Assembly (NCBI GenBank): GCA_035711365.1
Contig: DASTCF010000086.1
Location: 1 to 55,614, forward strand
Source of the DNA: Gemmatimonadales bacterium
GTDB lineage: Bacteria; Gemmatimonadota; Gemmatimonadetes; Gemmatimonadales; GWC2-71-9
Length of the DNA: 55,614 nucleotides
Direction: 5' to 3'
In this document: positions 6,796 through 22,960 of the stretch, one piece after another
Numbering within the stretch: position 1 is the stretch's first letter
Layout: each line of letters starts with the position of its first letter
Notes under the pieces: model-generated
Seen by the model: the letters and a program-made list of their open reading frames with translations, nothing else
What the model was told of the DNA's origin: nothing
The model's database searches: none
Program-made: the position numbers and the translations under genes

Positions 6796-7407
6796 ATGCC
6801 CGCGCACGCTCTCCTGCTCGCCGCCGGTTCGGGAAGCCGTTTCGGCAGCCACAAGCTGGTCGCCGTCTGGCGCGGCCGTCCCATGATCGCGCACGTCATC
6901 ACGACCATCAATGCCCTGCGCGACCGCGGCGCCATCGCCGGCGCGCTGGCGGTGGTTCGCTCCGGGGACGATCGGGTCATCGACCTGGCCCGGCAGGCGG
7001 GATTCCGGCTGGTGCTGAATTCGGATCCGGGGGAAGGGCTGTCGCACTCACTCAGGCTCGGGCTCGGCGCCCTTGCGATGCTCGATCCGGTTCCGGACGG
7101 AGCCCTGGTGTTCCTCGCGGATCAGCCGGCGGTGCCGATCGCGGCCGCCGAGGATGTGCTCACCGCGTGGAATCTCGCGGGTGGGCCGGTCGTCCGCCCA
7201 CGGTATGAGGCGAGTCCGGCGGAGCCGGGCCACCCGATCCTGCTCGACCGGGACGTGTGGGGCCTCGCCGACGGCCTGACCGGCGACCATGGACTCGGCG
7301 CGGCCCTGGCGCGGGCGCCGGACCTCGTGACGTATGTCGACGTGGACGGCGCCAATCCCGACGTGGATACTCCTGCGGACCTGACCCGCCTGCCGCGGTC
7401 CTCCTGA
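6796..7407 (+). CDS. MobA/MocA-like nucleotidyltransferase (molybdenum cofactor cytidylyl/guanylyl-transferase family)
   Basis: N-terminal LLLAAGSGSRFG NTP-transferase loop; size about 200 aa. ATG at 6796 (the ORF track starts at a TTG at 6790). Confidence 0.75.
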   Translation: MPAHALLLAAGSGSRFGSHKLVAVWRGRPMIAHVITTINALRDRGAIAGALAVVRSGDDRVIDLARQAGFRLVLNSDPGEGLSHSLRLGLGALAMLDPVPDGALVFLADQPAVPIAAAEDVLTAWNLAGGPVVRPRYEASPAEPGHPILLDRDVWGLADGLTGDHGLGAALARAPDLVTYVDVDGANPDVDTPADLTRLPRSS

Positions 7408-8936: not shown

Positions 8937-8969
8937 CCTCGCGTGCTTCGGGCCGGTTATTACCCCGTG

Positions 8970-10685
8970 ATGCCCCGCCCCAGCGCGACTTCCCCTGAGA
9001 CCGGCGCCCCAGCGCGCTCCTCGCCCCCTCCCGAATCGGTTTCTGCATTCGGGGTGTACCATTCGCTTCCCCGACAGGGGCTCTTCCGCCGCTTCCTGAC
9101 GACCCACCGACACCTGTTCGGCCTGATCTTCGGAGCGCTCTCCGCCGATGTCGAAATCAAGCGGCGCGATGGAACCGGTCGCGGCGCCCTCTTCTTCTTC
9201 GAGCGCCTGCTCAACGCATGCACCCGACCGTTCCTCGACCGCGGGCTCCGGGATCAGCCGTTTCCTGTACAGCTCCGCCGACGCCTCGAGCGGCTCGGCC
9301 CCACTTATATCAAGCTGGGCCAGATCCTGAGCCTCCGGGAGGACATCCTCCCCAAATCGGTGACCGAGGAGCTGAAGCATCTGCTCAGCACCTTACCTGC
9401 CGTCCCGTATCCAGTCTTTTGCGAGCTCATCGCCCGTGACCTGGGGCGCCCGCTGGGGGAGATGTTCGCCGAGATCGACGAGGTGCCGCTCGGGTCCGCT
9501 TCGATCGGGCAGGCCCATCGTGCCACCACCGTCGGCGGCGACAAGGTCATCGTGAAGGCGGTAAAGCCCGGGATCCCGGCGGTCCTCAGGCGGGATGCGA
9601 AACTGCTGGGGCTGGCGGGTTCGCTGCTGGAAATCGCGTTCCCGCGCTACGGCCCCAAGCGAATCATCCGGGAATTCACCGAGTACACGCTTCGTGAGGT
9701 CGACCTCCGCCGCGAGGCGGACAACGCGGAGACTTTCGCGGCCAATTTCCGGGATGAGCCCGGCATCGTCTTCCCGAAGATTTACCGGGAATACAGCGGG
9801 CCGCGTGTGCTGACGATGGAGTTCTTCGACGGGCATCGCCCCGACACGCCTCGCGTGCAGGCCATGCCGCTTGCCGAGCGTGAGCGACTCGTGGACCTCG
9901 GCGCGGAAGCCATCATCCGGATGATCTACCGGGACGGATTCTTCCACGCGGACCTCCACCCCGGCAACCTGCTGGTGCTCCCCGGCCCGAAGGCCGGGTT
10001 CATCGATCTCGGCATGGTGGGCCGCCTGCACGACGAACTGCGACGCACGCTGCTCTACTATTACTACTCGCTCGTGATGGGAGACGCGGAGAATGCGGCG
10101 CGCTATCTGTCTGCCGCCGCGGACCCGGGACGCGGTGGCGATCCGTCCGGCTTCCGGCGCGACGTCGCGGAGATCTCGAGCCGGTGGCGCCGGAGCGCCA
10201 ACTTCGACACGTTCTCGCTCGGCCAGCTGATCATGGAGTCGGTGACCCGCGGAGCCGAGTACCGCATGTTCTTTCCGGTCGAGATGGTGCTGATGGTCAA
10301 GGCGCTGATCACATTCGAGGGGGTTGGCCAGCTCCTGCTGCCGGGATTCGACGTTGCGGAGGTCTCCAAACGCCACGTGCGCCGGGTCTTCATTCAGCAG
10401 TTCAGCCCGGTGCGGCTGGTGCAGGAGGGCCTGCGAGGGGCGCCCGACCTGGTCGACGCGATGGTGAAGATGCCGCTCCTCGTCACCGAGGGCCTCCGGG
10501 TACTCGAAAAGACCACCAAGCGGAGCACCGAGAACCCGTTCGCGGGGCTCCGCGGCACGCTGATCGCGGGCTTCTCCCTTGTGGCCGGCGCCATCATCAT
10601 GGCGTTCGCCGGTACCCATGCATGGCCGCTCTGGGTGCCGTTCTTCGTGATCGCGCTGGTCCTGGCAGTCCGCCGCGGGGCCTGA
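8970..10685 (+). CDS. ABC1/UbiB-family atypical protein kinase with C-terminal membrane anchor
   Basis: Motifs: LGPTYIKLGQILSLREDILP, ASIGQAHRA, VKAVKPGI, FFHADLHPGNL. C-terminal hydrophobic helices. Alternative GTG start at 8943. Confidence 0.85.
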   Translation: MPRPSATSPETGAPARSSPPPESVSAFGVYHSLPRQGLFRRFLTTHRHLFGLIFGALSADVEIKRRDGTGRGALFFFERLLNACTRPFLDRGLRDQPFPVQLRRRLERLGPTYIKLGQILSLREDILPKSVTEELKHLLSTLPAVPYPVFCELIARDLGRPLGEMFAEIDEVPLGSASIGQAHRATTVGGDKVIVKAVKPGIPAVLRRDAKLLGLAGSLLEIAFPRYGPKRIIREFTEYTLREVDLRREADNAETFAANFRDEPGIVFPKIYREYSGPRVLTMEFFDGHRPDTPRVQAMPLAERERLVDLGAEAIIRMIYRDGFFHADLHPGNLLVLPGPKAGFIDLGMVGRLHDELRRTLLYYYYSLVMGDAENAARYLSAAADPGRGGDPSGFRRDVAEISSRWRRSANFDTFSLGQLIMESVTRGAEYRMFFPVEMVLMVKALITFEGVGQLLLPGFDVAEVSKRHVRRVFIQQFSPVRLVQEGLRGAPDLVDAMVKMPLLVTEGLRVLEKTTKRSTENPFAGLRGTLIAGFSLVAGAIIMAFAGTHAWPLWVPFFVIALVLAVRRGA

Positions 10686-10687
10686 AC

Positions 10688-11869
10688 GTGCGCGAACCCG
10701 CGACGCTTTCGCCTGCCGACATCCCGGAGCCCTACGAGCCGTTCGATCCGAGGTTCACTCGCGCCATGCTCGAGGACGTTCTCGAGCCGATCCTGCACCA
10801 TTATTTCCGCCCCGTCATCTTCGGCCTGGAGCACCTGCCTGCGGCCGGCCCAGTGATTCTCGCCGCCAACCACAGCGGCAACGCATTCCCCTACGACGCG
10901 ATCATCTTCGACGCCGAGCTCTGGCGGCTCGACGGTTACGACCCGGCGCGCAAGCTCCGAACGGTCTATGAGAAGGAGCTGTCCTATACCTGGTGGATGC
11001 GGCCGTTCGGGATCGACAACTTCTGGCGGCGCGGCGGCGGCGTCGACATGCTCTTCGACAACTTCGACCGGCTGCTCGCCCGCGGGGACCGGATCCTGTA
11101 TTTCCCCGAGGGCGTGCCGGGCATCGGCAAGGGCTTCAACCGGCGCTACCAGCTGCAGCGCTTCAGCACGAGCTTCGTGGTGCTCGCCGCGAAGCATGGC
11201 ATCCCGGTTTATCCGCTCTACATGGTCAACGCGGAGTGGATCAATCCGTATGGCTACGTCTTCCCGCCGCTCGACCGGGTAATGCAGCGCGCCTTCGCCG
11301 TGCCATTTCTCCCGCTCCCGGCCGGTCTCCTGGCCATCATCTTCCCCTGGATCTGGTACCTGGCGTTTCCGGCGCGGACGATTTTTGTCATCGGAGCGCC
11401 GCTGGACATTGCGACGCGGGTACGGGCGAGCGGGCTCGACGATCTTGCGCAGCCGGATCGGGCTGTCCTTCAGCGGGTGGCGGAGCATATCCGGCAGGAC
11501 ATGCAGCAGGAGCTGGACGACCTGGTGGCGATCCACGGCAAGCACCCGTACGATGGGCCGGGTCTGTGGAAGTCACTCAAGGCCGGCTGGGGGAGGTTGC
11601 GCTGGATTCTGCCAACGGGGTGGCCGGTGGCCTTCCTGCGAAAGGAGCGGGATTTCTATCGGCCGCCGGCGCGCAACGCGCTCCACCGGGTGCTTCGCGA
11701 CTGGGATCTCATCGGCTTCTACCTGCCGCTGGGATGGCCGCTCCTGTCCCTGGCTCGGCGCTTCCGGAAACCGCCCTACGGTGTGCGGGGGATCCCTCGG
11801 AAACAATGGAATGAACGCCAGGGTGCCTTCCTCTGGCGATTGGCGGAGCGCCCCCTACCGCCGCGGTAA
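10688..11869 (+). CDS. PlsC/LPLAT-superfamily acyltransferase
   Basis: H(X4)D-type motif ANHSGNAFPYD and FPEG motif (ILYFPEGVPG). GTG at 10688 lies 2 nt after the upstream stop. The ORF part 10184-10687 overlaps the kinase gene and is judged spurious. Confidence 0.7.
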   Translation: MREPATLSPADIPEPYEPFDPRFTRAMLEDVLEPILHHYFRPVIFGLEHLPAAGPVILAANHSGNAFPYDAIIFDAELWRLDGYDPARKLRTVYEKELSYTWWMRPFGIDNFWRRGGGVDMLFDNFDRLLARGDRILYFPEGVPGIGKGFNRRYQLQRFSTSFVVLAAKHGIPVYPLYMVNAEWINPYGYVFPPLDRVMQRAFAVPFLPLPAGLLAIIFPWIWYLAFPARTIFVIGAPLDIATRVRASGLDDLAQPDRAVLQRVAEHIRQDMQQELDDLVAIHGKHPYDGPGLWKSLKAGWGRLRWILPTGWPVAFLRKERDFYRPPARNALHRVLRDWDLIGFYLPLGWPLLSLARRFRKPPYGVRGIPRKQWNERQGAFLWRLAERPLPPR

Positions 11870-13108
11870 GCTGGGCGGTGGCAGCCGGTACTCGCCGGTG
11901 ACCGCCACCTCCAGCCGGCCCAGCGCGGCCTCGAACTCGCTCGTGACCGGATCGCGCTCGCTGAAATGGTCCAATCCCACGCTCATCCAGACGTCGCGCG
12001 GCGCTGAGAGGAGATCCTCGCGGAGCGTGATCCCGTGTCGCGCCAGCTGCGGCTTCAGCTCATGACGCCGGGCCCACAGATCGCGCCGGGTCGCCTGATA
12101 GGCCTGCTCGACCACCCGGCGACGCGACCGGAAGCTGAAGATGTTGCTGAAGAAGAGGTCGAATTCGTCCCGCGCAGGTTGGAAGAGCAGCACCTCTGAA
12201 TCCGGATACCGCGTGCGATACGCCGCCATCCCGACCTCGAGACGCGAGTGTATCAGGGTGCGGATGGTCTGACTGAGGACCGTCGGGAGCCCCTTCCGGA
12301 GGAGTGCCCCCTCGCGCAGCCGGCCGTCGCTCACCGCGCCGCGGATATCGGCCGGCACCATCGGGTTGACGCAGACGAGCAAGTCCACGCCTGTATCCAG
12401 GGCCACGGAAGCGTGCAACGTCTTCAGCAGGATGCCATCCACACAACTCCGCCCGTCGACCTCCACCGGCGGATAGAACCCGGGCACCGCGGTGCTCGCC
12501 TGCACCGCGACCGAGATGGGGACGTGATCCCATCCCTCGCCGCCGAACAAGATGGGGCGGCCGCTGTCCAGATCGGCTGCGACGACGATAAGCTTGTGGC
12601 GCAGCTTCCGGAAATCATCGGTGCGGTCCTTGATGGTGAAGGTGCGCTCGAGATAGCGCTGGATCGGCCTGTTATCGAAGAGGCCAATGGGAAGCGCCCG
12701 GGTGAGGCGGGTCAGCGACTCGAAGAGCGTCTGTTCTTCAGGGCCGCGGCGGAATTCCAACATCGCGTCGGCGAACAGCCTCGGCAGCATGATGCTGCGG
12801 CGGGCCCATTCGCGGTAATTGGGAGTGAAGAACGTCTGGGGGACGAAGGGATGCTCGCCGGGTTCGTGCTTCACGAGCGCCCGGACCAGCTGCACTGTCG
12901 TGATGTCGTTGGCGAGCGAAGAAGCGATGAATGCGCCCGCACTGACCCCGACGTAGATGTCGGCGTCCTGCAGGTTGAGCCCGTCCAGTGCTTCATCCAG
13001 GGCCCGGAGCGCGCCGATCTCATAGACGGCGCCCTCCGGGCCACCGCCGGCCAACGCGAGGCCGATCCGGCGGCGGGGCTTTGGCTTCTGCCGTGCCCGG
13101 GGAGGCAT
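11855..13108 (-). CDS. patatin-like phospholipase
   Basis: Oxyanion loop GLALAGGGPEGAVYEIGAL and nucleophile elbow GVSAG (GxSxG). GGAGGAG Shine-Dalgarno 5 nt before the ATG at 13108. Confidence 0.85.
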   Translation of the reverse strand: MPPRARQKPKPRRRIGLALAGGGPEGAVYEIGALRALDEALDGLNLQDADIYVGVSAGAFIASSLANDITTVQLVRALVKHEPGEHPFVPQTFFTPNYREWARRSIMLPRLFADAMLEFRRGPEEQTLFESLTRLTRALPIGLFDNRPIQRYLERTFTIKDRTDDFRKLRHKLIVVAADLDSGRPILFGGEGWDHVPISVAVQASTAVPGFYPPVEVDGRSCVDGILLKTLHASVALDTGVDLLVCVNPMVPADIRGAVSDGRLREGALLRKGLPTVLSQTIRTLIHSRLEVGMAAYRTRYPDSEVLLFQPARDEFDLFFSNIFSFRSRRRVVEQAYQATRRDLWARRHELKPQLARHGITLREDLLSAPRDVWMSVGLDHFSERDPVTSEFEAALGRLEVAVTGEYRLPPPSLPRR

Positions 13109-13131
13109 GGCGGCTCCTCCGGCGAGCCGGG

Positions 13132-13539
13132 CTACTTCGCGACGCGGCGGGCGCGGGTCCGCGCCTTGGCCTTCTTCTGCTCCACCGTGCGAGTCAGCTC
13201 TTCGACCCGACGGGTCAGGGCCATGATCTCCTTGCGCGTCGGCACGCCGAGCTTATTGAGCGCCGTCGAGACCCCGCGATCGATGGGGGCGGCGAGCCGC
13301 TCGACCGCCGTCTCCGCATCACCACGGAGAGCGCGCGCCCTGCCCTGAGCCTTCTCGAGCACGTTTGCCAGGCGCGCCTTGTTCATCTTTTCGATGTGCG
13401 AGCCCTTCTTCACGAGCTGCTCGAAGAGCCGACCACCCTCTTCGCCCGCCGTGGCCAGCGCGCCGAGACCGGCGAGCCAGATGTGCTGGGCATTCTCCCT
13501 CACGGTGAGCACCGGAGTCTTCCTGGTAGTGCGTGGCAT
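13132..13539 (-). CDS. phasin-family (PHA granule-associated) protein
   Basis: 135 aa. The N-terminal ENAQHIWLAGLGALATAGEEGGRLFEQLVKKG matches the phasin/PHA-granule-associated protein family as I remember it. Coiled, Lys/Arg-rich C-terminus. Strong SD (GGAGGAAGG) before the ATG at 13539. Confidence 0.7.
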   Translation of the reverse strand: MPRTTRKTPVLTVRENAQHIWLAGLGALATAGEEGGRLFEQLVKKGSHIEKMNKARLANVLEKAQGRARALRGDAETAVERLAAPIDRGVSTALNKLGVPTRKEIMALTRRVEELTRTVEQKKAKARTRARRVAK

Positions 13540-13616
13540 ACCTTCCTCCTGAGTACGGACCGCCGCGCGGCCCGGGGTGAGCTACTGTGCGCTTCGGCCG
13601 GCCTGGCCGCTGGCGC

Positions 13617-14108
13617 CTATCTGCGGCGGCGGTGGGCCGTCCGCTTGCCCTTCACCTGCCGGGCACCTCCCGGTGCCCGCTTCCGACTGACTGTTGTCCG
13701 TTCGAGCTCGGCCAGCGATCGCTCGAGACTGGCAATACCGTCCCGCAAGGCGTCGACCTCCGACCTGGCCTCACGCACCGGCCCGATGTGTTCAATCGAG
13801 TTGCGCACGATCCGGTCTACGCCGTGCTGCAACTGCTCGACCCGGGCCGCCACAGCCGCCTCGCCGCGCCGGATCACCGCGTGCAGCAGGTCGGCGGAGA
13901 GGAAGGCGATCCCGCGCTTCTCTCCCTCGAGGATCACCTGGGCCAACACCTGCCGCGTGACGTCCTCTCCGCCCGCGCTCTCGACCACCCGCACGTCCTG
14001 CCCGCCGCGGACCCAGCCGGCAAGCTCGCCAAGCGAGACATACCGGCTCTCCTCAGTGTCGTAGAGCTTGCGGCTACCGCCGCCGTACCGCTTGACCAGC
14101 CGGGCCAT
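13617..14108 (-). CDS. phaR: polyhydroxyalkanoate synthesis repressor PhaR
   Basis: LVKRYGGGSRKLYDTEESRYVSLGELAGWVRGGQDVRVVESAGGEDVTRQVLAQVILEGE is the conserved PhaR N-terminal DNA-binding region. Start chosen at ATG 14108 (MARLVKRY). The ORF extension to 14144 would run through the candidate operator. Confidence 0.85.
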   Translation of the reverse strand: MARLVKRYGGGSRKLYDTEESRYVSLGELAGWVRGGQDVRVVESAGGEDVTRQVLAQVILEGEKRGIAFLSADLLHAVIRRGEAAVAARVEQLQHGVDRIVRNSIEHIGPVREARSEVDALRDGIASLERSLAELERTTVSRKRAPGGARQVKGKRTAHRRRR

Positions 14109-14138
14109 CCCTGCCTCCTGGGTCGTGGCGGGAAGATA

Positions 14139-14152
14139 CCGCATTGCGGCAA
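14139..14152. promoter_or_regulatory. candidate operator repeat 1 (CCGCATTGCGGCAA)
   Basis: Inverted repeat CCGCA-T-TGCGG located 31-44 nt upstream of the phaR ATG. An identical 14-mer recurs 31 nt further on. Confidence 0.35.
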
Positions 14153-14167
14153 AAAGTCAAGCCTGGA

Positions 14168-14183
14168 TGCCGCATTGCGGCAA
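14168..14183. promoter_or_regulatory. candidate operator repeat 2 (perfect 7-1-7 palindrome TGCCGCATTGCGGCA)
   Basis: Perfect palindrome at 14168-14182. It shares the 14-mer CCGCATTGCGGCAA (14170-14183) with repeat 1. An inverted 9-nt copy TGCCGCAAT lies at 14232-14240. Confidence 0.4.
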
Positions 14184-14305: not shown

Positions 14306-15847
14306 ATGTTCATCCCGACCCTCCTGCTCAAGAAGCTCTACACCCTCGGCAGCCTGACCAATGTCGAGCATGGGGTGAGGTTCGCCATCAAGAATCGGCT
14401 GAGCAACGCCGAAGTCACCGAGCTCCTCAGCGTCGCGATTGACAACACCTCAATCCCGCGCGACGCAGTCGCGATTCACCTGGGCGACAGCCGGATCATC
14501 CAAGGCAGCGCCGTCCATCCGGACGCGCCGATCGAGTTTCCCCTCGGGGCGATCCTGACGCTGGTCGTCCAGTCCCCGCATCTCACCCCGGGAAAGCACA
14601 TGGTCGACATTGCGGTCAAGACCAGGCCATTCGGGAAACTGAGCTTCGACGTGGAGGACTCGATCCAGGCAGAGACCGAACAGCTGGTCCGGATACCCCG
14701 GGATGCGAAGGACGACTACGGGGAGGCTGCGATCCGGGCACGACAGGATTTCATCCGGAGTCAGACCGGCGCGACGCTCGATCACGTGACCCGGTTTTCA
14801 TTCGATGCCCACAGGGTCCAGGGGAACTGCGAGCATTTCACCGGTGTCGCCCAGATTCCGCTGGGCATCGCGGGACCCCTCACCATTCACGGCGAGCACG
14901 CGCAGGGAGATTTCTTCGTGCCCCTGGCCACGTCGGAGGGCACGCTGGTCGCGTCCTACAACCGCGGCATGAAGGTGGTCAACCTGTCGGGTGGCGCCCG
15001 GTGTACGATCGTGGGCGATGCGATGCAGCGGGCGCCTGTGTTCGTATTCGAAGACGCGCGCGCGTGCCGGGAATTCGTTCGGTGGGTCGGGGAGAACACG
15101 GCGAAGATTCGGGAGGAAGCGGAGGCCACCTCGAGTGTCGCGCGGCTCCAGTACATCGACCCCTACCTCGCCAACAAGTTCGTCTTCCTGCGGTTCAACT
15201 ACACGACGGGGGATGCCGCGGGCCAGAACATGGTCGGCCGTGCGACTTTCGCCGCGTGCAGCTGGATCCTGGACAACTATGCCGGCATCAAGCACTTCTA
15301 CCTCGAGTCGAATTTTGCCACCGACAAGAAGGCGTCCCAGATCAACATCATGCGGACCCGGGGCAAGCGCGTCACGGCCGAAGTGACCGTCCCGCGCGAC
15401 GTGCTGATCCAGCAGATGCGCGTGGAGCCCGAGAGCCTCGTCTATCATCACGGCGTGGCGAATGTGGGCGCCTTCCTGAGCGGCGCGAACAACAACGGCG
15501 CCCACTCCGCCAACGGCATCACTGCGATGTTCATCGCGACTGGCCAGGACGTCGCCAATGTGGCGGAGTCGTCGGCAGCCATTCTTTACGCCGAGCTTAC
15601 GCCCGATCGCGACATGTACCTGTCCATCACCATTCCCTCGCTCATCGTCGCAACCCACGGCGGCGGAACCGGCCTTCCCACCCAGAACGAGTGCCTCGAG
15701 ATGCTGGGCTGCCGCGGCAAGGGGAAGGTCAACAAGCTCGCCGAAATCATCGCCGGCGTGGTGCTCGCGGGCGAAATCTCCCTGGCCTCGGCGATCTCGT
15801 CCTCCGACTGGGTCTCCAGCCACGAGCGCTACGGACGCAACCGCTGA
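14306..15847 (+). CDS. class-I-type HMG-CoA reductase catalytic domain with an extra ~150-aa N-terminal soluble domain
   Basis: Motifs: IPLGIAGPLTIHG...VPLATSEGTLVASYNRG, TGDAAGQNMV, ATDKKASQIN..RGKRVTAEV, ANGITAMFIATGQDVANVAES, ATHGGGTGLPTQ. The N-terminal residues 1-150 have no motif I recognise and no TM helices. Confidence 0.8.
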   Translation: MFIPTLLLKKLYTLGSLTNVEHGVRFAIKNRLSNAEVTELLSVAIDNTSIPRDAVAIHLGDSRIIQGSAVHPDAPIEFPLGAILTLVVQSPHLTPGKHMVDIAVKTRPFGKLSFDVEDSIQAETEQLVRIPRDAKDDYGEAAIRARQDFIRSQTGATLDHVTRFSFDAHRVQGNCEHFTGVAQIPLGIAGPLTIHGEHAQGDFFVPLATSEGTLVASYNRGMKVVNLSGGARCTIVGDAMQRAPVFVFEDARACREFVRWVGENTAKIREEAEATSSVARLQYIDPYLANKFVFLRFNYTTGDAAGQNMVGRATFAACSWILDNYAGIKHFYLESNFATDKKASQINIMRTRGKRVTAEVTVPRDVLIQQMRVEPESLVYHHGVANVGAFLSGANNNGAHSANGITAMFIATGQDVANVAESSAAILYAELTPDRDMYLSITIPSLIVATHGGGTGLPTQNECLEMLGCRGKGKVNKLAEIIAGVVLAGEISLASAISSSDWVSSHERYGRNR

Positions 15848-15856
15848 CCGCCGCCG

Positions 15857-16864
15857 ATGCGTGACCTGCTCTCCGACCTCGACCGACTGAGTGCGCGTGG
15901 TCCTGTCGGCCGCGGCGTCGTGACCTCCGTGTGGGGATCTGCCCCGAGACCCGAAGGAGCCTGCCTGCTGGCAACGGCAGAGGGAGGCGTTGCAGGGTCG
16001 GTCTCCGGAGGCTGCGTGGAGGCGGCCGTGGCGGAGGAAATCGCTGCCGCCCTGAGGCGGGGGACACCGCGGCTGGTCCGGTACGGAGTGACCGACGAGC
16101 GCGCCTGGGAGGTGGGACTGGCGTGCGGGGGCACCATTGAGGTGCTCGTCCAGCCTTCCGTTCCCGACGCGGTGATCGCGGCGGCGAGGGGCCCCGGTGG
16201 GGTCGTGGTGGCGTCCCCGCTGGAAGGCGAAGATCTCGGCAGGCCCACTGTCATCCGTGAGGATGCGGACAGCCCGAAGTCCCCGCTCGTTGCCGCCGCA
16301 CTCGAGGCACTCCGCCACCAGCGGTCACGCACGGTGCGGGTCCCGTTCCCCGCCGGCGAGGTTCCGGTCTTTCTCGAGGTGTTCCCCCGCCCGCCGCGAC
16401 TGGTCATCGTCGGGGGTGTGCACCTTGCCGCGGCGCTGGTTCCGCTGGCCCGAACACTGGGGTATCGGACCCTCGTGGTAGACGGGCGGCCCGCATTCCT
16501 CACCCGGGAACGCTTCCCGGACGCCGATGACCTCGTGCACGGATGGCCGGCGGAGGCGTTCGCTCGAATCGGGCTTGATTCCGCGACGTACGTCTGCGTG
16601 CTGACGCACGACCCCAAGTTCGATGACCCGGCGCTGATGCTGGCACTTCGCTCGCCCGCGGCGTACGTCGGTGCGCTGGGCTCCCGGAAGACGCAGGGAG
16701 CACGCCGGCACCGCCTCCGCGAGGCCGGCCTCACGGACGCGGAGCTCGCGCGCCTCCACGGGCCGATCGGCCTCGACCTGGGCGGCCGGGGGCCGGCGGA
16801 AACCGCGCTTGAAATCCTGGCGGAGATGACGGCAGTGCGGTACGGAAAAGAACCCGACAGATGA
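15857..16864 (+). CDS. XdhC/CoxI-family accessory protein
   Basis: N-terminal XdhC_CoxI-type segment (WGSAPRPEGA...GSVSGGCVE) and C-terminal Rossmann-like segment (LVIVGGVHLAAALVPLARTLGYRTLVVD). Starts 9 nt after the HMGR stop. Confidence 0.8.
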   Translation: MRDLLSDLDRLSARGPVGRGVVTSVWGSAPRPEGACLLATAEGGVAGSVSGGCVEAAVAEEIAAALRRGTPRLVRYGVTDERAWEVGLACGGTIEVLVQPSVPDAVIAAARGPGGVVVASPLEGEDLGRPTVIREDADSPKSPLVAAALEALRHQRSRTVRVPFPAGEVPVFLEVFPRPPRLVIVGGVHLAAALVPLARTLGYRTLVVDGRPAFLTRERFPDADDLVHGWPAEAFARIGLDSATYVCVLTHDPKFDDPALMLALRSPAAYVGALGSRKTQGARRHRLREAGLTDAELARLHGPIGLDLGGRGPAETALEILAEMTAVRYGKEPDR

Positions 16865-16925: not shown

Positions 16926-17378
16926 TCATCGAAGTGCCGCCAGTTTCCGCAGTTCGCGCATCACCGCGCGCTGGGCCACCGCATCCCGCACGGCAATGAA
17001 GATCGTATCGTCGCCGGCAATCGTCCCCACCACTTCCGCCCAGGCCAGGCGATCCAGCGCCGCGCCGACACGGTTCGCTTCACCGGGTGGCGTCCGGAGC
17101 ACGATGAGCGAATCTCCCGCCGGTTCCACGCCGATCAGCCCCTCCGCGATCCGCCGCTGGTCGGGATCGTCACTCGGCCGGCCGACCACCACCGGGCGGC
17201 GATAGGCGCCGTCCACTTTCACGAGGTGCAGCGCGGAGATGTCGCGGCTGACGGAGGACTGGGTCACCTCCCACCCTTCCTGTGCCAGCGCGTCGGCCAG
17301 CTCCTCCTGGGTCCGGATGGAGCGGGTGCTGATCAGCTCCAGAATCTTCAGGTGCCGCTGGCGTCGATCGCCGGTCAC
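16926..17378 (-). CDS. argR: arginine repressor ArgR
   Basis: Winged-helix N-terminus RQRHLKILELISTRSIRTQEELADALAQEGWEVTQSSVSRDISAL and C-terminal oligomerisation/arginine-binding domain (GTIAGDDTIFI). GTG start overlaps the argH stop (GTGA). Confidence 0.9.
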   Translation of the reverse strand: MTGDRRQRHLKILELISTRSIRTQEELADALAQEGWEVTQSSVSRDISALHLVKVDGAYRRPVVVGRPSDDPDQRRIAEGLIGVEPAGDSLIVLRTPPGEANRVGAALDRLAWAEVVGTIAGDDTIFIAVRDAVAQRAVMRELRKLAALR

Positions 17379-18766
17379 GGCTTCTTCCCGGGGGGAGGGC
17401 CCGCGAGACGACGGAGGGCGGATTCGAACCGGCGGCGCTCCCGGATCGCCCAGGCCCGGGTCGCCCGCAGACGACCCCGCAGATGCGCCAGGCCGAGATT
17501 CCCGAGTCCACCTGTCGACCGGCGTCTCGCCAGGATCTCCTGCTTCGAGGGAGACGGGAATACCGCGCCTCGCGCGAGCTCATCGGCGACTTCGCGGTAG
17601 GCACGGCGAAATGGCGTGCCGGCTTCAACGCGTCGCATCACCTCGTCTGTGGCGAGGGTCCCATTGTGAATCGCGGCAGCGCAGCGCTCCCGATTGATGC
17701 TGATCGACGGCACGGCCACCACCATCATCTCGAGCATCTCCAGCGTTCGCGTCGTCCCGCGGATGAGCGGCTCCTTGAGGAGCTGGAAATCCCGGTGGTA
17801 CCCTCCGGGCAGCCCGCCTGCCAGGTACCGCACGGCGGCGTGATCCCCCGCGACTCCAGCCGAGCGCGCCCGCGTCAACTCAAACAGGTCGGGATTCCGC
17901 TTGTGAGGCATGATGCTGGACCCGGTGGAGAGCGCCACCGGCAATGTCAGGTAGCCGTACTCCTCCGCGCTGAACAGGATGACGTCCGCGCTCAGACGGC
18001 CGAGGTCATGGCCCAGCTCCCCGCACCAGGCAAGGACGGCAGCTTCGAGCTTTCCCCTTCCGAGCTGGACGGCGGCCACGTTGTGCTCGACGGCGCCGAA
18101 GCCAAGCGCCCGGGCAGTGGCCTCCCGGTTCAGGTCGAGCGGCACACCGTACCCGGCCGCACTACCGAGCGGGCAGCGGTCCACCCGCGCCCATAGCGCA
18201 GGCAGGGATTCGAGCGTGTCCAGCAGGCTTTCTCCGTATGCGGCAGCCCACAGCCCGACGCTCGAGGGCATTGCGCGCCGGGTGTGGGTGTAGCCGGGCC
18301 AGAGCACGGTGGCGTGCCGGGCGGCAAGGCGACCGAGCGCCTCGATCAGGTCCGTACCGATCGCGTGCAGTTCGAGAAGCATCTCCTTGAGGTACAGGCG
18401 GATGTCCACGGCGACCTGATCATTCCGGGATCGGCCGGTGTGCAGTTGTTCCCCGGATATTCCGTGCCGGCGCGTGAGCCAGTCCTCGACAGCGGTATGC
18501 GCGTCCTCGTGGACGAGGTCGATGGTGAGTTTGCCGTCCTCGATCGCACGGAGGGCAGCGCGCAGTCCGGCCCGCAGGCGCAGGTGCGTGCGTGTCGAAA
18601 GCAGTCGCGAGGCCCGGAGCCCTTCGACGTGCCCGAGGCTGCCGTACACATCCCACGGCAGCAGGCGCAGGTCCCACCCCCGGTCCTCGCCGATCGTATA
18701 CGTCAGCATGCGCGGGTCGATTTCCCCGGACGACCACAGCGTTCTCGGGCGGCGGCGGGGGCTCAT
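17375..18766 (-). CDS. argH: argininosuccinate lyase
   Basis: Fumarate-lyase signature GSSIMPHKRNPD. ATG at 18766 overlaps the stop of the upstream gene (ATGA). The ORF extension to 18835 is judged spurious. Confidence 0.9.
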   Translation of the reverse strand: MSPRRRPRTLWSSGEIDPRMLTYTIGEDRGWDLRLLPWDVYGSLGHVEGLRASRLLSTRTHLRLRAGLRAALRAIEDGKLTIDLVHEDAHTAVEDWLTRRHGISGEQLHTGRSRNDQVAVDIRLYLKEMLLELHAIGTDLIEALGRLAARHATVLWPGYTHTRRAMPSSVGLWAAAYGESLLDTLESLPALWARVDRCPLGSAAGYGVPLDLNREATARALGFGAVEHNVAAVQLGRGKLEAAVLAWCGELGHDLGRLSADVILFSAEEYGYLTLPVALSTGSSIMPHKRNPDLFELTRARSAGVAGDHAAVRYLAGGLPGGYHRDFQLLKEPLIRGTTRTLEMLEMMVVAVPSISINRERCAAAIHNGTLATDEVMRRVEAGTPFRRAYREVADELARGAVFPSPSKQEILARRRSTGGLGNLGLAHLRGRLRATRAWAIRERRRFESALRRLAGPPPGKKP

Positions 18767-19839
18767 TGCAGGTACGCCCGGGCGAGATCCGCGTAGAAGC
18801 GGCGCGCGGCCGTCACCTCGCGCAGGTCCACGCATTCATCCGGCGTGTGCGAGCGGCTGCTCGTCCCCGGACCGCACTTGAACCCGTCGGCCTCGCGGAG
18901 GAATACCCAGTCGGAGCAGGTCGGGCTGCCGTAATGCCGCGCCTGGGGCCGGACCCGACTGGCGGCCGCGAGAAGCGGGGAGTCCAACCTCGTCTCACAG
19001 GGCACGAGCCGGTCCGACGTCACGAGCACCTCGCAGTCCAGCGCCTGACTGAGTGCATCGGCAAGCTCGGCGTGCGTCCAGGCCGGCGTGCTTCGGACGT
19101 CGAGAATCGCCCGGGCGCGCGGTGGCGTGACATTCCGGCTTACCCCTGCTTCGACCATCGTTGGGGTGACGGTCGGATGGCCCAGCAGCAAGTGCGGCCG
19201 GTCGCGGAAGAGCCCTTCGAGTTTCACCAGATCCCGGCTCAACAGTACCAGCGCATTGGTGAACGGACCGTCCTCGCTCACCCTGCCGGCGTGGCGCTGG
19301 TCCCCGTGCGCCACGAGATCCACCATCATCAATCCCCGCTGGGCGACGGCGAAGTCGAGATTCGTCGGCTCCCCGACCACGGCCGCGTTCACCGGCCCGG
19401 CGCGGGCGACGAGGTCCGGCATGCTTGTGTTGCGCGTCTCCTCGCCGAATCCGAGGAGCAGGAGGAGGTCGCCGCGTGCCGGCCCACCCTCCTGCGCCAC
19501 GTCCATCGCGGAGACGAGCATGGCGGCGACCGACGCCTTGGCATCGCCCGCGCCACGCCCATGAAGCATGGTGCCCTCGATGACGGGTGTGAACGGGTCG
19601 CGCGTCCATCCTGCACCGGGCGGGACGACGTCGAGGTGTGACACGAACGCCAGGGTTGGGCCGGCCTTCCGCCCCGCGATGCGCAGGCGCACGCCGGTCT
19701 CATCGCGCGCGACCGGGAGCCCCCATCCCCGCACGGTCTCCTCCACAAGCCGTGCCACGCCCTCCTCGTCCCCGCTGACCGAAGGGATCGCGACCAGGTC
19801 CCGCAGGAGCAGGATTTCAGTCGGCCAGGTCGACGCCAA
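18763..19839 (-). CDS. M20-family metallo-deacylase, ArgE-like (predicted N-acyl-citrulline/ornithine deacylase)
   Basis: LLRDLVAIPSVSGDE, SHLDVVP and GRGAGDAKAS motifs of M20 peptidases/ArgE. Positioned inside the arg operon. The only in-frame start is a TTG at 19839. Confidence 0.75.
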   Translation of the reverse strand: MASTWPTEILLLRDLVAIPSVSGDEEGVARLVEETVRGWGLPVARDETGVRLRIAGRKAGPTLAFVSHLDVVPPGAGWTRDPFTPVIEGTMLHGRGAGDAKASVAAMLVSAMDVAQEGGPARGDLLLLLGFGEETRNTSMPDLVARAGPVNAAVVGEPTNLDFAVAQRGLMMVDLVAHGDQRHAGRVSEDGPFTNALVLLSRDLVKLEGLFRDRPHLLLGHPTVTPTMVEAGVSRNVTPPRARAILDVRSTPAWTHAELADALSQALDCEVLVTSDRLVPCETRLDSPLLAAASRVRPQARHYGSPTCSDWVFLREADGFKCGPGTSSRSHTPDECVDLREVTAARRFYADLARAYLQ

Positions 19840-20752
19840 GGTAGGTCGCCTTTTCCTTTCGCCCCACGATCATCGTGCCGCAGCCGGCACCAGTGAAGAC
19901 TTCGAGGAGGATCGCGTCGGGAGCACGGCCGTCGATGATGTGGGTGCGCTCGACGCCGCCCGTCGCCGCCCGAATGCAGGCCTCGACCTTGGGCCGCATC
20001 CCGCCGGCAATCGCCCCGTTGGACATCAGGCTGGCCAGGTCATCGGGGTCGGCGAATGCGACGAGGCTCGTGGGATCGTCCCGGTCCCGCAACACTCCCG
20101 GCGCCCCGGTGAGGAAGATGAGCTTCTGCGCCCGAAGCGCCACCGCCAGCGCCTCGGCGACTGTATCCGCGTTGACGTTATAGACGCGCCCGTCGTCGTC
20201 GCCCGCCAGGCTGGCCACGACCGGGACGAACCGCGCATCGAGCAGCGTGACCAGCACGCGAGGATCCACGCGGTCGATGTCGCCGACGTGTCCGAAATCG
20301 AGCGTGATCGAAGCGCCCGAGTCATCCACTGTCTGGACCGGAGGGCGGCGGTGCGCCGTGAGCAGGTCGGCATCCACTCCGCTCAATCCGACCCCCTGCA
20401 CATGGTGTTCGCGCAACGCGGCGAGGAGATCCACGTTGAGCTGCCCGGCGTAGACCATCTTGGCAACGCCCAGCGCCTCGTCGTCGGTCACCCGGCGGCC
20501 GGCGACCATCCGCGGCTCGTGCCCCAGCCGCCGGCTCAGGGCGGTCGCCTGCGGCCCTCCGCCATGGACCACCACGAGACGGATGCCGAGACTGGAAAGC
20601 AGCGAGACCTGGGCGGCCACTCCATCGAGTGCCTCGAGGTCCGCGAGCACTTCGCCGCCCAGTTTCACCACGAAGACCTGGTCGCGATAGGCGCGAACGT
20701 AACGCAGGGCCCCCTTGAGGCCAGCGATGCCCTTTGAAGTGTCGATCGACAA
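19817..20752 (-). CDS. argB: acetylglutamate kinase (no fused GNAT domain)
   Basis: Amino-acid-kinase motifs VVKLGGEVL, VVHGGGPQ, NVNADT. No in-frame ATG downstream of the argF' stop. TTG at 20752 is preceded by GGAGGAG (20760-20766). The longer ORF to 21055 overlaps argF'. Confidence 0.8.
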   Translation of the reverse strand: MSIDTSKGIAGLKGALRYVRAYRDQVFVVKLGGEVLADLEALDGVAAQVSLLSSLGIRLVVVHGGGPQATALSRRLGHEPRMVAGRRVTDDEALGVAKMVYAGQLNVDLLAALREHHVQGVGLSGVDADLLTAHRRPPVQTVDDSGASITLDFGHVGDIDRVDPRVLVTLLDARFVPVVASLAGDDDGRVYNVNADTVAEALAVALRAQKLIFLTGAPGVLRDRDDPTSLVAFADPDDLASLMSNGAIAGGMRPKVEACIRAATGGVERTHIIDGRAPDAILLEVFTGAGCGTMIVGRKEKATYLGVDLAD

Positions 20753-20771
20753 TGTTGAACTCCTCCGAGAT

Positions 20772-21791
20772 TCACGCCCCGTTGCGGAGCAATGCGAGCA
20801 GAAGCGCCCGCTGCACGTGCAGGCGATTCTCCGCTTCATCCACCACGACGGCATTGGGTCCATCGAGGACCGCGTCGTCGATTTCCACGTTGCGGCGGAC
20901 GGGCAGGCAGTGCATGACGATCGCCTTGCCGTTCCGCGTCGCACGAACCCGGTCCGCCGTGAGCCGCCAATCCCGGTGCCGGTCGAAATAGGAGCGCTGC
21001 TGTTCCGGGTGCCCATAGAAGGCCACCGGCCCCCACGACTTGGCATACACGGCATCCGCCCCCGACATCGCCGCGTCCTGATCGTTCACTATGGTCACGG
21101 GGCGGGCGCCGGCCTCCCCTGCCGTGGCCTGGATCACCTGCATGTCCTCCGGGTCCAGATCGCACCCCTCGGGCGCCGCGATGGTGACGTCCATCCCCAT
21201 GCGGGCGGCGGCGAGGGCTGCGCTGACCGGCACCGCCGTGGGCAGCGCCTTCGGGTGCCACGCCCATGTGAGCACGAAGCGCTTCCCATGAGTCTCCCCA
21301 AGCCGTTCGCGCAGAGTGAACGCGTCCGCAAGCTCCTGGCACGGATGGCGCCGGGCAGATTCCAGGTTGATCACCGGCCGCTCGCAGTGCTGCGCAAACT
21401 TCCGGATCACCGCGTCCTTCCTGGCCGCGGCCCATTCCGCGCCGCGGGGAAAGGCGCGCACCGCGAGGGCATCTGCGTAGCGCCCTAGCACGCGCGCGGC
21501 CTCCGTCACGTGCTCGACGGAGTCCTGGTCCATGACTACCCCGTCCTCGGTCTCGAGCGCCCAGCTGCCCTTCCCAGGTTCCAGCACCACGGCGTGCCCG
21601 CCGTGAAGAAACATCGCGGCCTCGAAGCTGGTGCGGGTGCGGAGGCTCGGATCGAGGAACACCATCGCCAGGATCTTCCGCTCCAGGCCTCCCTTTATCT
21701 CGCCCCGCTTCACGCGAGCCGCCAGCTGGAAGAGCGCCTCGATTTCGCCGGGCGACCAATCCTCCACTGCCAAAAAGTCGCGCTTGGTCAC
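20772..21791 (-). CDS. argF': N-acyl-L-ornithine carbamoyltransferase (AOTCase/SOTCase family, not classical OTCase)
   Basis: DPSLRTRTSFE (carbamoyl-phosphate site), RHPCQELAD, YAKSWG, MHCLPVRRNVEIDDAVLD, DEAENRLHVQRALL. From memory, these follow the Xanthomonas/Bacteroides N-acyl-ornithine transcarbamylase pattern nearly residue for residue. GTG start overlaps the argD stop (GTGA). Confidence 0.8.
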   Translation of the reverse strand: MTKRDFLAVEDWSPGEIEALFQLAARVKRGEIKGGLERKILAMVFLDPSLRTRTSFEAAMFLHGGHAVVLEPGKGSWALETEDGVVMDQDSVEHVTEAARVLGRYADALAVRAFPRGAEWAAARKDAVIRKFAQHCERPVINLESARRHPCQELADAFTLRERLGETHGKRFVLTWAWHPKALPTAVPVSAALAAARMGMDVTIAAPEGCDLDPEDMQVIQATAGEAGARPVTIVNDQDAAMSGADAVYAKSWGPVAFYGHPEQQRSYFDRHRDWRLTADRVRATRNGKAIVMHCLPVRRNVEIDDAVLDGPNAVVVDEAENRLHVQRALLLALLRNGA

Positions 21792-22960
21792 GCCAGAACC
21801 TCGCGCAATCCGCCCAGGAGGCGGTCGGCCTCGGAGATCGAGAACGAGAGCGGTGGCAGCAGGCGCAGCACGTTCGGATCGGCAGAGGTGCCGGTCAGGA
21901 TCCGGTGGGCGAAGAGCGCCGATTGAATCTCCCTGGCGCTCCGGCCGAAATCGAGCCCCAACAGCAGTCCACGGCCCCAGACTCTCCGGGCGCCGAGGGC
22001 GAGCGCACCGGCCGTGAGGTGGGCGCCGACCCGGCGGGCATTGGCCGGCAGCTGCTCGTCGGCCAGAACATCGAGTGTCGCCAGTGCCGCGGCACAGGGG
22101 ACCGGTCCGCCGCCGAAGGTGCTGCCGAGATCGCCCACTGCGATGCCCTCAGTCACGTCCTGGGTCGCGATGACGGCACCGATCGGTATCCCCGAGGCAA
22201 GACCTTTTGCCAGGGTCAGGAGGTCAGGCGTGACCCCGAAGGACTCGGCGGCTGTGAACTGACCGGTCCGGCCCACGCCGCACTGTATCTCATCGAAGAT
22301 GAGCGCGACGCCGCGCTCGGTGCAGATCCGCCGGGCGGCATGGAGGAACTCGGCGCTGCAATCCCTCGCGCCAGCCATGCCCTGCACCGGCTCCACGATC
22401 AGTGCCGCGATGGACTCATCGAGGACCGCATCGAGTGACGCCACATCGTTGAACGCCACGCGGCGCGAGAGCGCGATGCCGGCCCGGCGGGCGGTTGCCT
22501 CATAGCCGGGGCCATCGCAACACGCGAGGGTGGCCACCGTTCGCCCGTGCCATCCTCCGGTCACCGAGGCGACCGCGATCCGCCCGGTCCTGCGGCGTGC
22601 CAGGTGCAGGGCATTCTCGTTGGCTTCCGCCCCCGAATTGCAGAAGAACACCCGGTCGAGCGGTTCGGGACACAGTTCCGCCAGCCGGGCGGCCAGCCGT
22701 TCCCGGTTGGGATGCGGGACAGCGGTGGAGTAGAACAGCAGCCGCGCGGCCTGATCCGCGATCGCCTGCACGACGCGCGGATGGCTGTGGCCGGTCGCGG
22801 CGACGGCATGCCCGCCGTAGGCGTCCAGCCACTCAAGACCGTCCTCGTCGATCAGCCAGGAGCCGCGGCCCGACACCGGTCGCACCGGCATCTGGGCATA
22901 GACCGGCAGCAGGGCCGACCCGCCGGCGTTTTTCGATGCCCGCTGCTCGGCCTTCAGCAT
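21788..22960 (-). CDS. argD: acetylornithine (N-acyl-ornithine) aminotransferase, class-III PLP enzyme
   Basis: FCNSGAEANE, DEIQCGVGRTG and TLAKGLASGIPIG (PLP-lysine region). ATG at 22960 overlaps the argC 3' end by 7 nt. Confidence 0.9.
   Translation of the reverse strand: MLKAEQRASKNAGGSALLPVYAQMPVRPVSGRGSWLIDEDGLEWLDAYGGHAVAATGHSHPRVVQAIADQAARLLFYSTAVPHPNRERLAARLAELCPEPLDRVFFCNSGAEANENALHLARRRTGRIAVASVTGGWHGRTVATLACCDGPGYEATARRAGIALSRRVAFNDVASLDAVLDESIAALIVEPVQGMAGARDCSAEFLHAARRICTERGVALIFDEIQCGVGRTGQFTAAESFGVTPDLLTLAKGLASGIPIGAVIATQDVTEGIAVGDLGSTFGGGPVPCAAALATLDVLADEQLPANARRVGAHLTAGALALGARRVWGRGLLLGLDFGRSAREIQSALFAHRILTGTSADPNVLRLLPPLSFSISEADRLLGGLREVLA

Follow-up and report, generated by a model that had tools for sequence, protein, structure and literature searches.

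The fcrA locus

We analyzed a 55,614-nucleotide stretch of DNA from a Gemmatimonadales bacterium (the window). The features considered here are:

8943..10685, + strand: ABC1/UbiB-type atypical kinase (PF03109, E 1e-59), the commonest neighbor of FcrA genes
10688..11869, + strand: PlsC-like acyltransferase, 393 aa (PF01553, E 1.1e-11), whose GTG start lies 2 nt beyond the ABC1 stop
11855..13108, − strand: patatin-like lipase (PF01734, E 3.5e-23), FcrA-linked in 7/80 loci
13132..13539, − strand: phasin (PF05597, E 1.4e-31), FcrA-linked in 5/80 loci
13617..14144, − strand: phaR-like regulator (PF07879, E 1e-19), divergent from fcrA
14140..14183, no strand: pair of CGCATTGCGGCAA boxes (31 nt apart) in the intergenic region between the divergent phaR and fcrA genes, candidate operators for PhaR
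14306..15847, + strand: fcrA, predicted FcrA-type fatty acyl-CoA reductase (class-I-HMGR-derived), 513 aa, assigned by PF25653 + PF00368, signature residues and clade
14324..14668, + strand: Lad (long-chain alkyl carrier) domain of FcrA, residues 7-121, ten beta strands (PF25653, E 1e-35)
14732..15838, + strand: HMGR-fold catalytic core of FcrA, residues 143-511 (PF00368, E 2.8e-128)
15857..16864, + strand: XdhC-family gene, 335 aa (PF02625, E 8e-19; PF13478, E 1.5e-42), 9 nt after fcrA

The fcrA open reading frame begins with ATG, and GGAGA lies 8 nt upstream. The initial annotation called its product a class-I HMG-CoA reductase (HMGR) with a novel soluble N-terminal domain. The class-I-like catalytic domain is confirmed: all four motifs quoted for it (PLATSEGTLVASYNRG, DKK, ATGQD and GGGTGLPTQ) occur in the 513-aa protein, and PF00368 spans residues 143-511. 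The core of the window protein matched PDB 6hr7 at E 1.5e-78, and a Foldseek search matched both 6hr7 and human HMGR at E 1e-30. The only NCBIfam models to match were those for HMG-CoA reductase, every one scoring below its cut-off; TIGR00533 gave 353 bits against a cut-off of 441.8. There are more than 8000 homologues, and the best 120 listed share the PF25653 + PF00368 architecture.

The N-terminal domain

The N-terminal region had been described as matching nothing known. It matches the curated Pfam family PF25653 (HMG-CoA_red_N), which is the "Lad" domain of FcrA (Grossi et al. 2025, ISME J, PMC11948995). A mis-called start or an unexpressed N-terminus is ruled out: homologues from many phyla (>80 species) align from residue 1-3, and residues 1-130 modeled alone with AF2 fold confidently (pLDDT 90.7, 10 strands). 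A membrane anchor is likewise ruled out, and the earlier statement that the region is not membrane-spanning holds, since residues 7-121 form a separate, soluble, all-beta domain. The linker that follows is disordered in the AF2 model.

The structure prediction and fold search called for by the initial annotation revealed a known beta-sandwich fold. The Lad model aligns with 8qvc_B, a C-glycoside deglycosidase (CGD) beta subunit, with Z 14.7 and an rmsd of 2.5 Å over 116 of 125 residues at 21% identity, and the Lad sequence weakly matches CGDB PF19906 (E 0.008). The comparison with CGD beta subunits (DgpB/CarC type, PF19906 CGDB; 8QVC_B, 7BVR_B) extends to Lad alone. The settings differ: Lad is part of a reductase polypeptide, and the partner of the CGD beta subunit is a separate TIM-barrel subunit. 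The fold match does not imply a common function.

Pocket residues and phylogeny

The catalytic tetrad is kept in the window protein (E211, K341, D415 and H506) and is invariant or nearly so across the family. The HMG-site residues R242 (human R590), D340 and K342 are also retained, and from the human structure we take D340 and R242 to be contacts of the 3-OH region. By alignment, the positions of human S684, K735 and L862 are occupied by E334, A385 and W502. Over 80 two-domain sequences this signature is complete, with Glu in 80/80, Ala, Ser or Gly in 80/80 and Trp in 80/80. In the same alignment, HMGRs encoded next to mevalonate kinase have Ser, Lys and Leu at these positions. Confidence in the full-length AF2 model is low at the pocket loops (residues 335-350, 387-398 and 501-513).

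These three pocket changes are the ones named for FcrA (section 19 of PMC11948995, where human K735 is printed as Lys795). The window protein carries all three, giving the FcrA combination of Glu, small residue and Trp. The Ser684 and Lys735 that bind the HMG carboxylate in biosynthetic HMGRs are replaced here by E334 and A385.

[quoted passage not shown] 2025, ISME J 19:wraf035, PMC11948995). The known members comprise Pb-FcrA, from 'Ca. Promineifilum breve' (CUS01882.1), and a protein that Natronomonas pharaonis encodes as its second HMGR copy; the Lad beta domain is present in part of the family (PMC11948995). Pb-FcrA is NADPH-dependent, reduces only acyl-CoA of at least C14 and is inactive on C4-C12; HMG-CoA is not reduced, and simvastatin has no inhibitory effect (PMC11948995). 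Free aldehyde is not reduced by FcrA (PMC11948995).

The initial annotation had proposed a phylogeny. In a quick ML tree, two-domain/FcrA-type sequences split from the class-I HMGRs adjacent to mevalonate kinase (SH-aLRT 99), which makes the window protein a separate paralogue from the mevalonate-linked enzymes. It clusters with 36 other two-domain sequences, including L024, which comes from a MAG of the tested enzyme's family (Promineifilaceae) and is 68% identical to the window protein; L024 stood as the Promineifilaceae representative in place of the assayed sequence CUS01882.1. The Lad + HMGR-core architecture, the catalytic tetrad, the three pocket substitutions and the clade are all common to FcrA and the window protein, and both are found in genomes lacking a mevalonate pathway. 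The host phylum, Gemmatimonadota, is absent from the main text of the FcrA paper (PMC11948995).

Class-I HMGRs (human 1DQ8/1DQA, Arabidopsis 7ULI and M. thermolithotrophicus 6HR7) have the same fold as the window protein (Foldseek E 1e-30, 33-39% identity) and share its catalytic Glu/Lys/Asp/His and NADPH-type core. They differ in that the window protein has replaced the HMG-pocket Ser/Lys/Leu, falls in a separate clade and has no linkage to mevalonate kinase; where the eukaryotic enzymes have a membrane anchor, it has an extra beta domain at the N-terminus. Other alcohol-forming fatty acyl-CoA reductases of bacteria, the FarA/Maqu_2220 and AcrB types, have an unrelated Rossmann/SDR-type fold. 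Their net reaction is that of FcrA (acyl-CoA + 2 NADPH to fatty alcohol), and like FcrA they are tied to wax-ester or ether-lipid synthesis (PMC11948995).

Isoprenoid pathways in the host and in other FcrA-bearing genomes

No mevalonate-pathway gene was found among the window genes scanned against Pfam, in line with the earlier reading of the 55 kb. A complete mevalonate pathway elsewhere in the genome would have spoken against a role outside isoprenoid synthesis. HMG-CoA synthase, mevalonate kinase and mevalonate-PP decarboxylase were not found in the host MAG, which is 85% complete, and IspG of the MEP route was. One weak GHMP-kinase match on contig C99, considered as a mevalonate kinase candidate, is a galactokinase. 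Together with the separation of the window protein from mevalonate-linked HMGRs, these data support the initial proposal that the enzyme does not serve isoprenoid synthesis.

We examined 50 other genomes that encode a window-type protein. Mevalonate kinase was found in 21 (17 above the cut-off and 4 just below it) and IspG in 27, and no genome had both. Each of the 21 genomes with mevalonate kinase encodes a second HMGR, either class I beside mevalonate kinase or class II, and in 18 MEP users the window-type protein is the only HMGR-family copy. The locus, mevalonate kinase, HMGR, IspG and WS/DGAT tallies each include one count from an unpublished genome (G045, locus L078), and no claim depends solely on it.

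The lipid-body neighborhood

The arrangement phaR-phasin-patatin-PlsC-ABC1 around fcrA, followed by xdhC, is a neighborhood not found in the FcrA paper. Genes that recur near FcrA across phyla encode ABC1 kinase, WS/DGAT, PhaR, acyl-CoA ligase, patatin, PlsC-like acyltransferase and phasin. ABC1 kinase was present in 14 loci by neighbor clustering (counting the window's own) and in 15/80 other loci by tblastn. A PhaR homologue lies near FcrA in 9/80 loci, and PlsC-like orthologues adjoin FcrA in L005, L008, L014, L031 and L041. The window ABC1 kinase and PhaR both score under the cut-offs of their NCBIfam models (307 bits for TIGR01982 and 75.6 bits for TIGR01848). Motif I of the PlsC-like acyltransferase is atypical (NHSGNAFPYD).

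WS/DGAT is encoded by 33 of the 50 other FcrA genomes, in 13 of them within about 10 kb of the FcrA gene. FcrA is frequently found without WS/DGAT (PMC11948995). A wax-ester pathway of FcrA plus WS/DGAT calls for both in the same genome; PF03007, the WS/DGAT family, matched nothing in the host MAG (85% complete) and nothing in the closest relative of that MAG. WS/DGAT was present in 1/6 genomes with a linked PlsC-like gene vs 32/45 without one (Fisher p 0.017, uncorrected for relatedness), which is only a lead. PHA synthase was sought as class I/II (PF07167) and class III/IV (TIGR01836). Neither was found in the host MAG, in four further genomes that share the PhaR-phasin-FcrA layout, or in G008, a genome with ABC1, PlsC-like and patatin neighbors.

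The CGCATTGCGGCAA boxes occur twice where 0.27 matches are expected. An identical pair is present in L005 (at 9802/9834) and variant boxes in L107 and L109; an exact search of the distant PhaR-FcrA loci L008, L031 and L041 gave no match. The boxes are conserved among close kin only, and PhaR may bind them.

The XdhC neighbor

The gene 9 nt downstream of fcrA had been assigned to the XdhC/CoxI family, and both domains, XdhC_CoxI and XdhC_C, are present. Its scores against NCBIfam equivalogs are under their cut-offs. No second XdhC_C copy was found in the MAG, which encodes two Mo-hydroxylase large subunits (MoCoBD_1) on contigs C91 and C40. These two domains, along with potential Mo-hydroxylase clients in the genome, are consistent with an XdhC/CoxI maturation factor.

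The initial annotation had left the HMGR/XdhC pairing unexplained and suggested a synteny survey. In that survey the pair occurred in 1/80 loci from other species (L005) and, within the order, in 2/16 other genomes with an HMGR-family match (L107 and L109). These three are the closest relatives, and a conserved HMGR-XdhC operon is ruled out as a general feature. We considered whether, in this lineage, XdhC could be functionally partnered with FcrA, serving the reductase or the lipid module as a Rossmann-fold accessory or chaperone rather than acting in molybdoenzyme maturation. The 9-nt gap is consistent with co-transcription, and L005, L107 and L109 all preserve the phaR-phasin / fcrA-xdhC arrangement, although their XdhC proteins are only 67-70% identical. 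However, none of the remaining 79 loci across phyla shows the pairing, nor do the five further complete FcrA loci with a Lad domain in the same order, and the two Mo-hydroxylase large subunits encoded elsewhere need an XdhC, of which this is the genome's only one. Because the three genomes are close kin, shared ancestry would suffice to explain the layout. We regard a partnership as unlikely; xdhC is probably a neighbor kept by descent and not a general FcrA partner.

Proposed function and alternatives

We consider it very likely that the window protein is an FcrA-type reductase that converts long-chain acyl-CoA to fatty alcohol, most likely feeding the adjacent lipid-storage module and not isoprenoid synthesis. 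Long-chain activity is suggested by analogy with the assayed relative of the same clade (PMC11948995). The HMGR-fold core would use Glu/Lys/Asp/His and two NADPH for a four-electron reduction of thioester to alcohol, as in HMG-CoA reductase, turning a long-chain fatty acyl-CoA, from about C14 upward, into a fatty alcohol. Replacement of Ser by Glu334, Lys by Ala385 and Leu by Trp502 would open and de-charge the HMG carboxylate site, and the ten-strand Lad domain probably accommodates the alkyl chain, be it that of the substrate or that of the product. The alcohol would most likely enter neutral-lipid or alkyl-lipid storage through the module of PlsC-like acyltransferase, patatin lipase, phasin and ABC1 kinase, and PhaR may regulate it. 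Isoprenoids would be made by the MEP route, without the product of this enzyme.

Could the protein be a genuine HMG-CoA reductase, biosynthetic or degradative, working on HMG-CoA from leucine catabolism or on imported mevalonate? The strong PF00368 and TIGR00533 matches (the latter below its cut-off) and the conserved tetrad, R242, D340 and K342 speak for this. Against it, the carboxylate-binding Ser and Lys have become Glu and Ala, and Leu has become Trp, as in FcrA, which is unable to reduce HMG-CoA; no mevalonate genes were found in the MAG (85% complete), and, among the 50 other genomes with a window-type protein, every mevalonate user has another HMGR. We judge this extremely unlikely. 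The oxidative or degradative role raised by the initial annotation also does not fit with Pb-FcrA, which has the same pocket signature, reduces only acyl-CoA of at least C14 with NADPH and leaves HMG-CoA untouched (PMC11948995).

A substrate from the acetoacetyl-CoA/PHA node, in the form of a short or medium 3-hydroxyacyl-CoA (for example 3-hydroxybutyryl-CoA, reduced to a diol), would explain the presence of PhaR and phasin, whose genes adjoin fcrA with operator-like boxes in the common intergenic region. Retention of D340 and R242, presumed contacts of the 3-OH region, would also suit such a substrate. This proposal, likewise from the initial annotation, is very unlikely to be correct. Pb-FcrA, with an identical pocket signature, is inactive on C4-C12 acyl-CoA (PMC11948995), PHA synthase was found in neither the MAG, the four same-layout genomes nor G008, and the other recurrent neighbors are long-chain lipid genes (WS/DGAT, acyl-CoA ligase, PlsC-like and patatin).

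Returning to the FcrA-type reductase, we tentatively raise a wider possibility, which we think doubtful as it stands: that FcrA is part of a PhaR-regulated storage-lipid body system, operating without PHA synthase or WS/DGAT, in this lineage, KSB1, Rhodothermales and an unclassified bacterium. In such a system, phasin would form the coat of the lipid body, which the patatin lipase would mobilize and the ABC1 kinase accompany. The PlsC-like acyltransferase would replace WS/DGAT, using the FcrA alcohol or an alkyl-glycerol derivative. If true, PhaR and phasin would have been recruited to non-PHA lipid bodies.

Implications

The window gene is explained and ordinary, except for its setting among lipid-body genes. 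The enzyme family is already published; what is new here is one member and its context, and no new principle is involved. Among the matches listed, homologues carry the source name "hydroxymethylglutaryl-CoA reductase (NADPH)". An HMGR label on FcrA would give the false impression that bacteria using the MEP route have part of a mevalonate pathway, and the correct FcrA reading predicts fatty alcohol production by these soil Gemmatimonadales. The conserved lipid-body neighborhood, with neither PHA synthase nor WS/DGAT, points to a testable and undescribed route of fatty-alcohol storage or use.

FcrA-type reductase encoded in the window

The window carries an ORF that the initial annotation described as class-I HMG-CoA reductase (HMGR)-like. 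Every motif it quoted is found in the 513-aa ORF at 14306-15847, and the XdhC-like gene reported 9 nt downstream is also there. The N-terminal domain had been called new. Because PF25653 matches residues 7-121, the domain is real, yet it belongs to an already curated family, the Lad domain of FcrA.

Features of fcrA and its neighbours
10688-11869: PlsC-like acyltransferase, GTG start at 10688, 2 nt past the ABC1 stop
14306-15847, + strand: fcrA, 513 aa, ATG start with GGAGA 8 nt upstream
fcrA residues 7-121: HMG-CoA_red_N (PF25653; Pfam, E = 1e-35)
fcrA residues 143-511: HMG-CoA_red (PF00368; Pfam, E = 2.8e-128)
15857-16864, + strand: XdhC_CoxI + XdhC_C gene (Pfam), starting 9 nt past the fcrA stop
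16926-26233, - strand: arginine operon (argR, argH, M20 deacylase, argB, argF', argD, argC, 352-aa gene, argG)

The NCBIfam NADPH-HMGR equivalog scored 353 bits against the window protein, below its cut-off of 441.8. Among the best 80 loci from at least 584 species, the closest protein relative comes from a Gemmatimonadales MAG (81% identity). Lipid-gene neighbours and pocket changes pointed to reduction of fatty acyl-CoA, and a literature search then matched the protein to FcrA, a family named by Grossi et al. (2025, ISME J 19:wraf035; PMC11948995). In that paper, the purified 'Ca. Promineifilum breve' enzyme is NADPH-dependent and converts acyl-CoA substrates of at least C14 to alcohols, is inactive on HMG-CoA and on free aldehyde, and is not inhibited by 10 uM simvastatin. 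E. coli expressing FcrA produces C16 alcohol, and wax esters once the wax-ester synthase WS/DGAT is co-expressed. The ten-strand N-terminal domain is Lad, a long-chain alkyl carrier domain (PMC11948995). These activities speak against the earlier suggestion of a short 3-hydroxyacyl-CoA substrate at the PHA node or an oxidative direction. Our literature search found no later FcrA papers.

Pocket residues and phylogeny

We aligned the window protein to solved class-I HMGRs and to mevalonate kinase (MK)-linked HMGRs from the same genomes as two-domain proteins (Lad plus HMGR-fold core). Catalytic E211, K341, D415 and H506 are retained, as are N403, R242, D340 and K342. Three pocket changes are published for FcrA (PMC11948995): Glu in place of Ser684, a small residue in place of Lys (numbered 795 in print) and Trp in place of Leu862. 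The same three positions are changed here. Glu334 replaces the Ser of 'SGNxCxDKK'; Ala385 replaces the Lys of 'YRKNLLGS', a position that is A in 58, S in 20 and G in 2 of 80 sequences; and Trp502 replaces the Leu four residues ahead of the catalytic His and is W in 80/80. All sequence criteria for FcrA in PMC11948995 are found in the window protein.

The phylogeny proposed in the initial annotation was run as a quick ML tree. The window protein groups in the two-domain clade with a Promineifilaceae sequence, and a set of Lad-less FcrA-like copies of Acidobacteriota is sister to this clade. A split with SH-aLRT 99 sets the whole FcrA group apart from class-I HMGRs linked to MK. Judged by its sequence, the window gene is a new member of the known, recently published FcrA family.

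Extra FcrA-like copies lie at G016:C99:1088-2191, G028:C108:14727-15830 and G008:C15:2066-3175 (genome, contig and positions; loci L099, L100 and L101). The second copy is Lad-less in some Acidobacteriota and Lad-bearing in Longimicrobium, and a WS/DGAT gene lies within a few kb of each. Lad-less copies, the sister clade, have W at the Leu862 position.

Structure of the Lad domain

The full-length AF2 model (pLDDT 76, low near the pocket loops) resembles archaeal and human HMGR. Modelled by itself, Lad (14324-14668) has ten strands (pLDDT 90.7). C-glycoside deglycosidases supply its top structural matches, in each case the small beta subunit (8qvc_B, 21% identity, Z 14.7 and rmsd 2.5 A across 116 aa; DgpB 7bvr_B, Z 13.6). 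The next unrelated fold has Z 9. A sub-threshold match to Pfam PF19906 (CGDB; E = 0.008) agrees with the fold match. The Lad (PF25653) and PF19906 families are probably distant homologues, a kinship of which we found no mention in the accessible text of PMC11948995.

Relationship to the mevalonate pathway

The source MAG (2.64 Mb, 213 contigs, 84.9% complete; the window is contig C86) contains the HMGR fold once. HMG-CoA synthase, diphosphomevalonate decarboxylase and MK were not found in this 84.9% complete MAG, and IspG of the MEP pathway was (394 bits). The only GHMP-kinase match, a weak one on contig C99 (89.7 bits), bears a galactokinase signature and was ruled out as MK.

A gene can be missed in a MAG that is 85% complete, and the same questions were therefore put to other genomes with the protein. 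At least 584 species have a relative; the best 80 loci were retained (63-81% identity) and span Gemmatimonadota, Acidobacteriota, Chloroflexota, KSB1, Calditrichota, Bacteroidota/Rhodothermota, Planctomycetota and Pseudomonadota. Among 50 genomes with the two-domain protein, 21 have MK (including four just under the family cut-off) and 27 have IspG, with zero overlap. All 21 MK-bearing genomes encode a second HMGR; therefore, no mevalonate user in this set has the two-domain protein as its only HMGR. The second HMGR is class I and adjoins MK in several Thermoanaerobaculia, one unclassified Acidobacteriota and one Rhodothermales genome. Among the Chloroflexota and Calditrichia genomes covered, it is class II. 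An Aureispira genome without IspG or a clear MK also has a second, class-II-like HMGR. The two-domain protein is the only HMGR-family member in 18 of the 27 MEP users and is common in genomes without the mevalonate pathway. Bacteria whose only homologue is FcrA are reported to be without this pathway (PMC11948995). Together, the MAG and its relatives bear out the proposal that this enzyme works outside isoprenoid synthesis.

Canonical HMGR directly adjoins MK in mevalonate-using FcrA genomes at G021:C118, G022:C4, G023:C332, G024:C65, G040:C10, G041:C20 and G048:C2.

Lipid-gene context

Recurrent neighbours across phyla (tblastn and ORF clustering over the best 80 loci; ABC1, PhaR and PlsC-like counts include the window's own locus)
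ABC1/UbiB-type kinase: 14 loci
WS/DGAT wax-ester synthase: 10 loci
PhaR: 9 loci
Long-chain-type AMP-binding ligase: 8 loci
Patatin: 7 loci
PlsC-like acyltransferase: 6 loci
Phasin: 5 loci

WS/DGAT occurs in 33/50 genomes with the two-domain protein versus 0/14 control genomes; none was found in the source MAG (84.9% complete) or its closest relative genome. According to PMC11948995, FcrA is frequently without WS/DGAT and may then supply ether-lipid synthesis, with Coxiella, where FcrA lies beside a PlsC-like gene, as an example of the possible link.

Upstream of fcrA the order is a CoxG/SRPBCC-domain protein, ABC1 kinase and PlsC-like acyltransferase, then minus-strand patatin, phasin and phaR. 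Motif I of the PlsC-like protein is NHSGNAFPYD versus the usual HX4D, and motif III, FPEG, is intact. The CoxG/SRPBCC protein (559 aa, 7257-8936), encoded immediately ahead of the ABC1 kinase gene and conserved in the closest relative's locus (L005), has its lipid-binding-type domain confined to residues 62-194.

The phaR/fcrA intergenic region contains a pair of CGCATTGCGGCAA boxes spaced 31 nt apart (14140-14183; 0.27 expected by chance). The pair (CGCAYTGCGGCAA) recurs in L005 (9802-9846), and variant boxes occur in the intergenic regions of L107 and L109, loci from the same order. As candidate PhaR operators, the CGCATTGCGGCAA boxes could act on both transcription units. Closer to the fcrA start than the CGCAYTGCGGCAA boxes is another conserved, CGTGATAGATAC-like block, which may belong to a promoter.

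In the window (8943-14144), L005, L008, L031 and L041, PhaR and phasin lie beside FcrA together with patatin, PlsC-like and ABC1 genes, in genomes without a detected PHA synthase.

PHA synthase (PF07167, TIGR01836) was found neither in the source MAG nor in four further genomes that share the PhaR-phasin-FcrA layout, nor in G008, a genome with ABC1, PlsC-like and patatin neighbours. WS/DGAT is missing from 5/6 genomes with a linked PlsC-like gene, a count that ignores kinship. Together, these absences weakly suggest a non-PHA, non-WS/DGAT lipid-body module as the alcohol sink.

The XdhC neighbour

XdhC adjoins the two-domain gene in 1/80 loci, L005 (tblastn and ORF clustering, best 80 loci). 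The HMGR fold is present in 17/121 genomes of the same order (10/56 genera), and only two more of these, at L107 and L109, have the phaR-phasin/fcrA-xdhC layout; these two are closely related (core identity 87-89%). The HMGR-XdhC pair noted initially is thus real here and in L005, L107 and L109 but absent from the other surveyed loci. The window XdhC is the sole XdhC_C protein in the source MAG (84.9% complete), and two molybdenum-hydroxylase large subunits are encoded on other contigs. On the simplest view, XdhC works for those hydroxylases, and its place next to fcrA in this sub-lineage reflects common descent. The minus-strand arginine operon (16926-26233) converges on xdhC. The remaining interest of the locus lies in its lipid-body context and its lineage-restricted XdhC neighbour.
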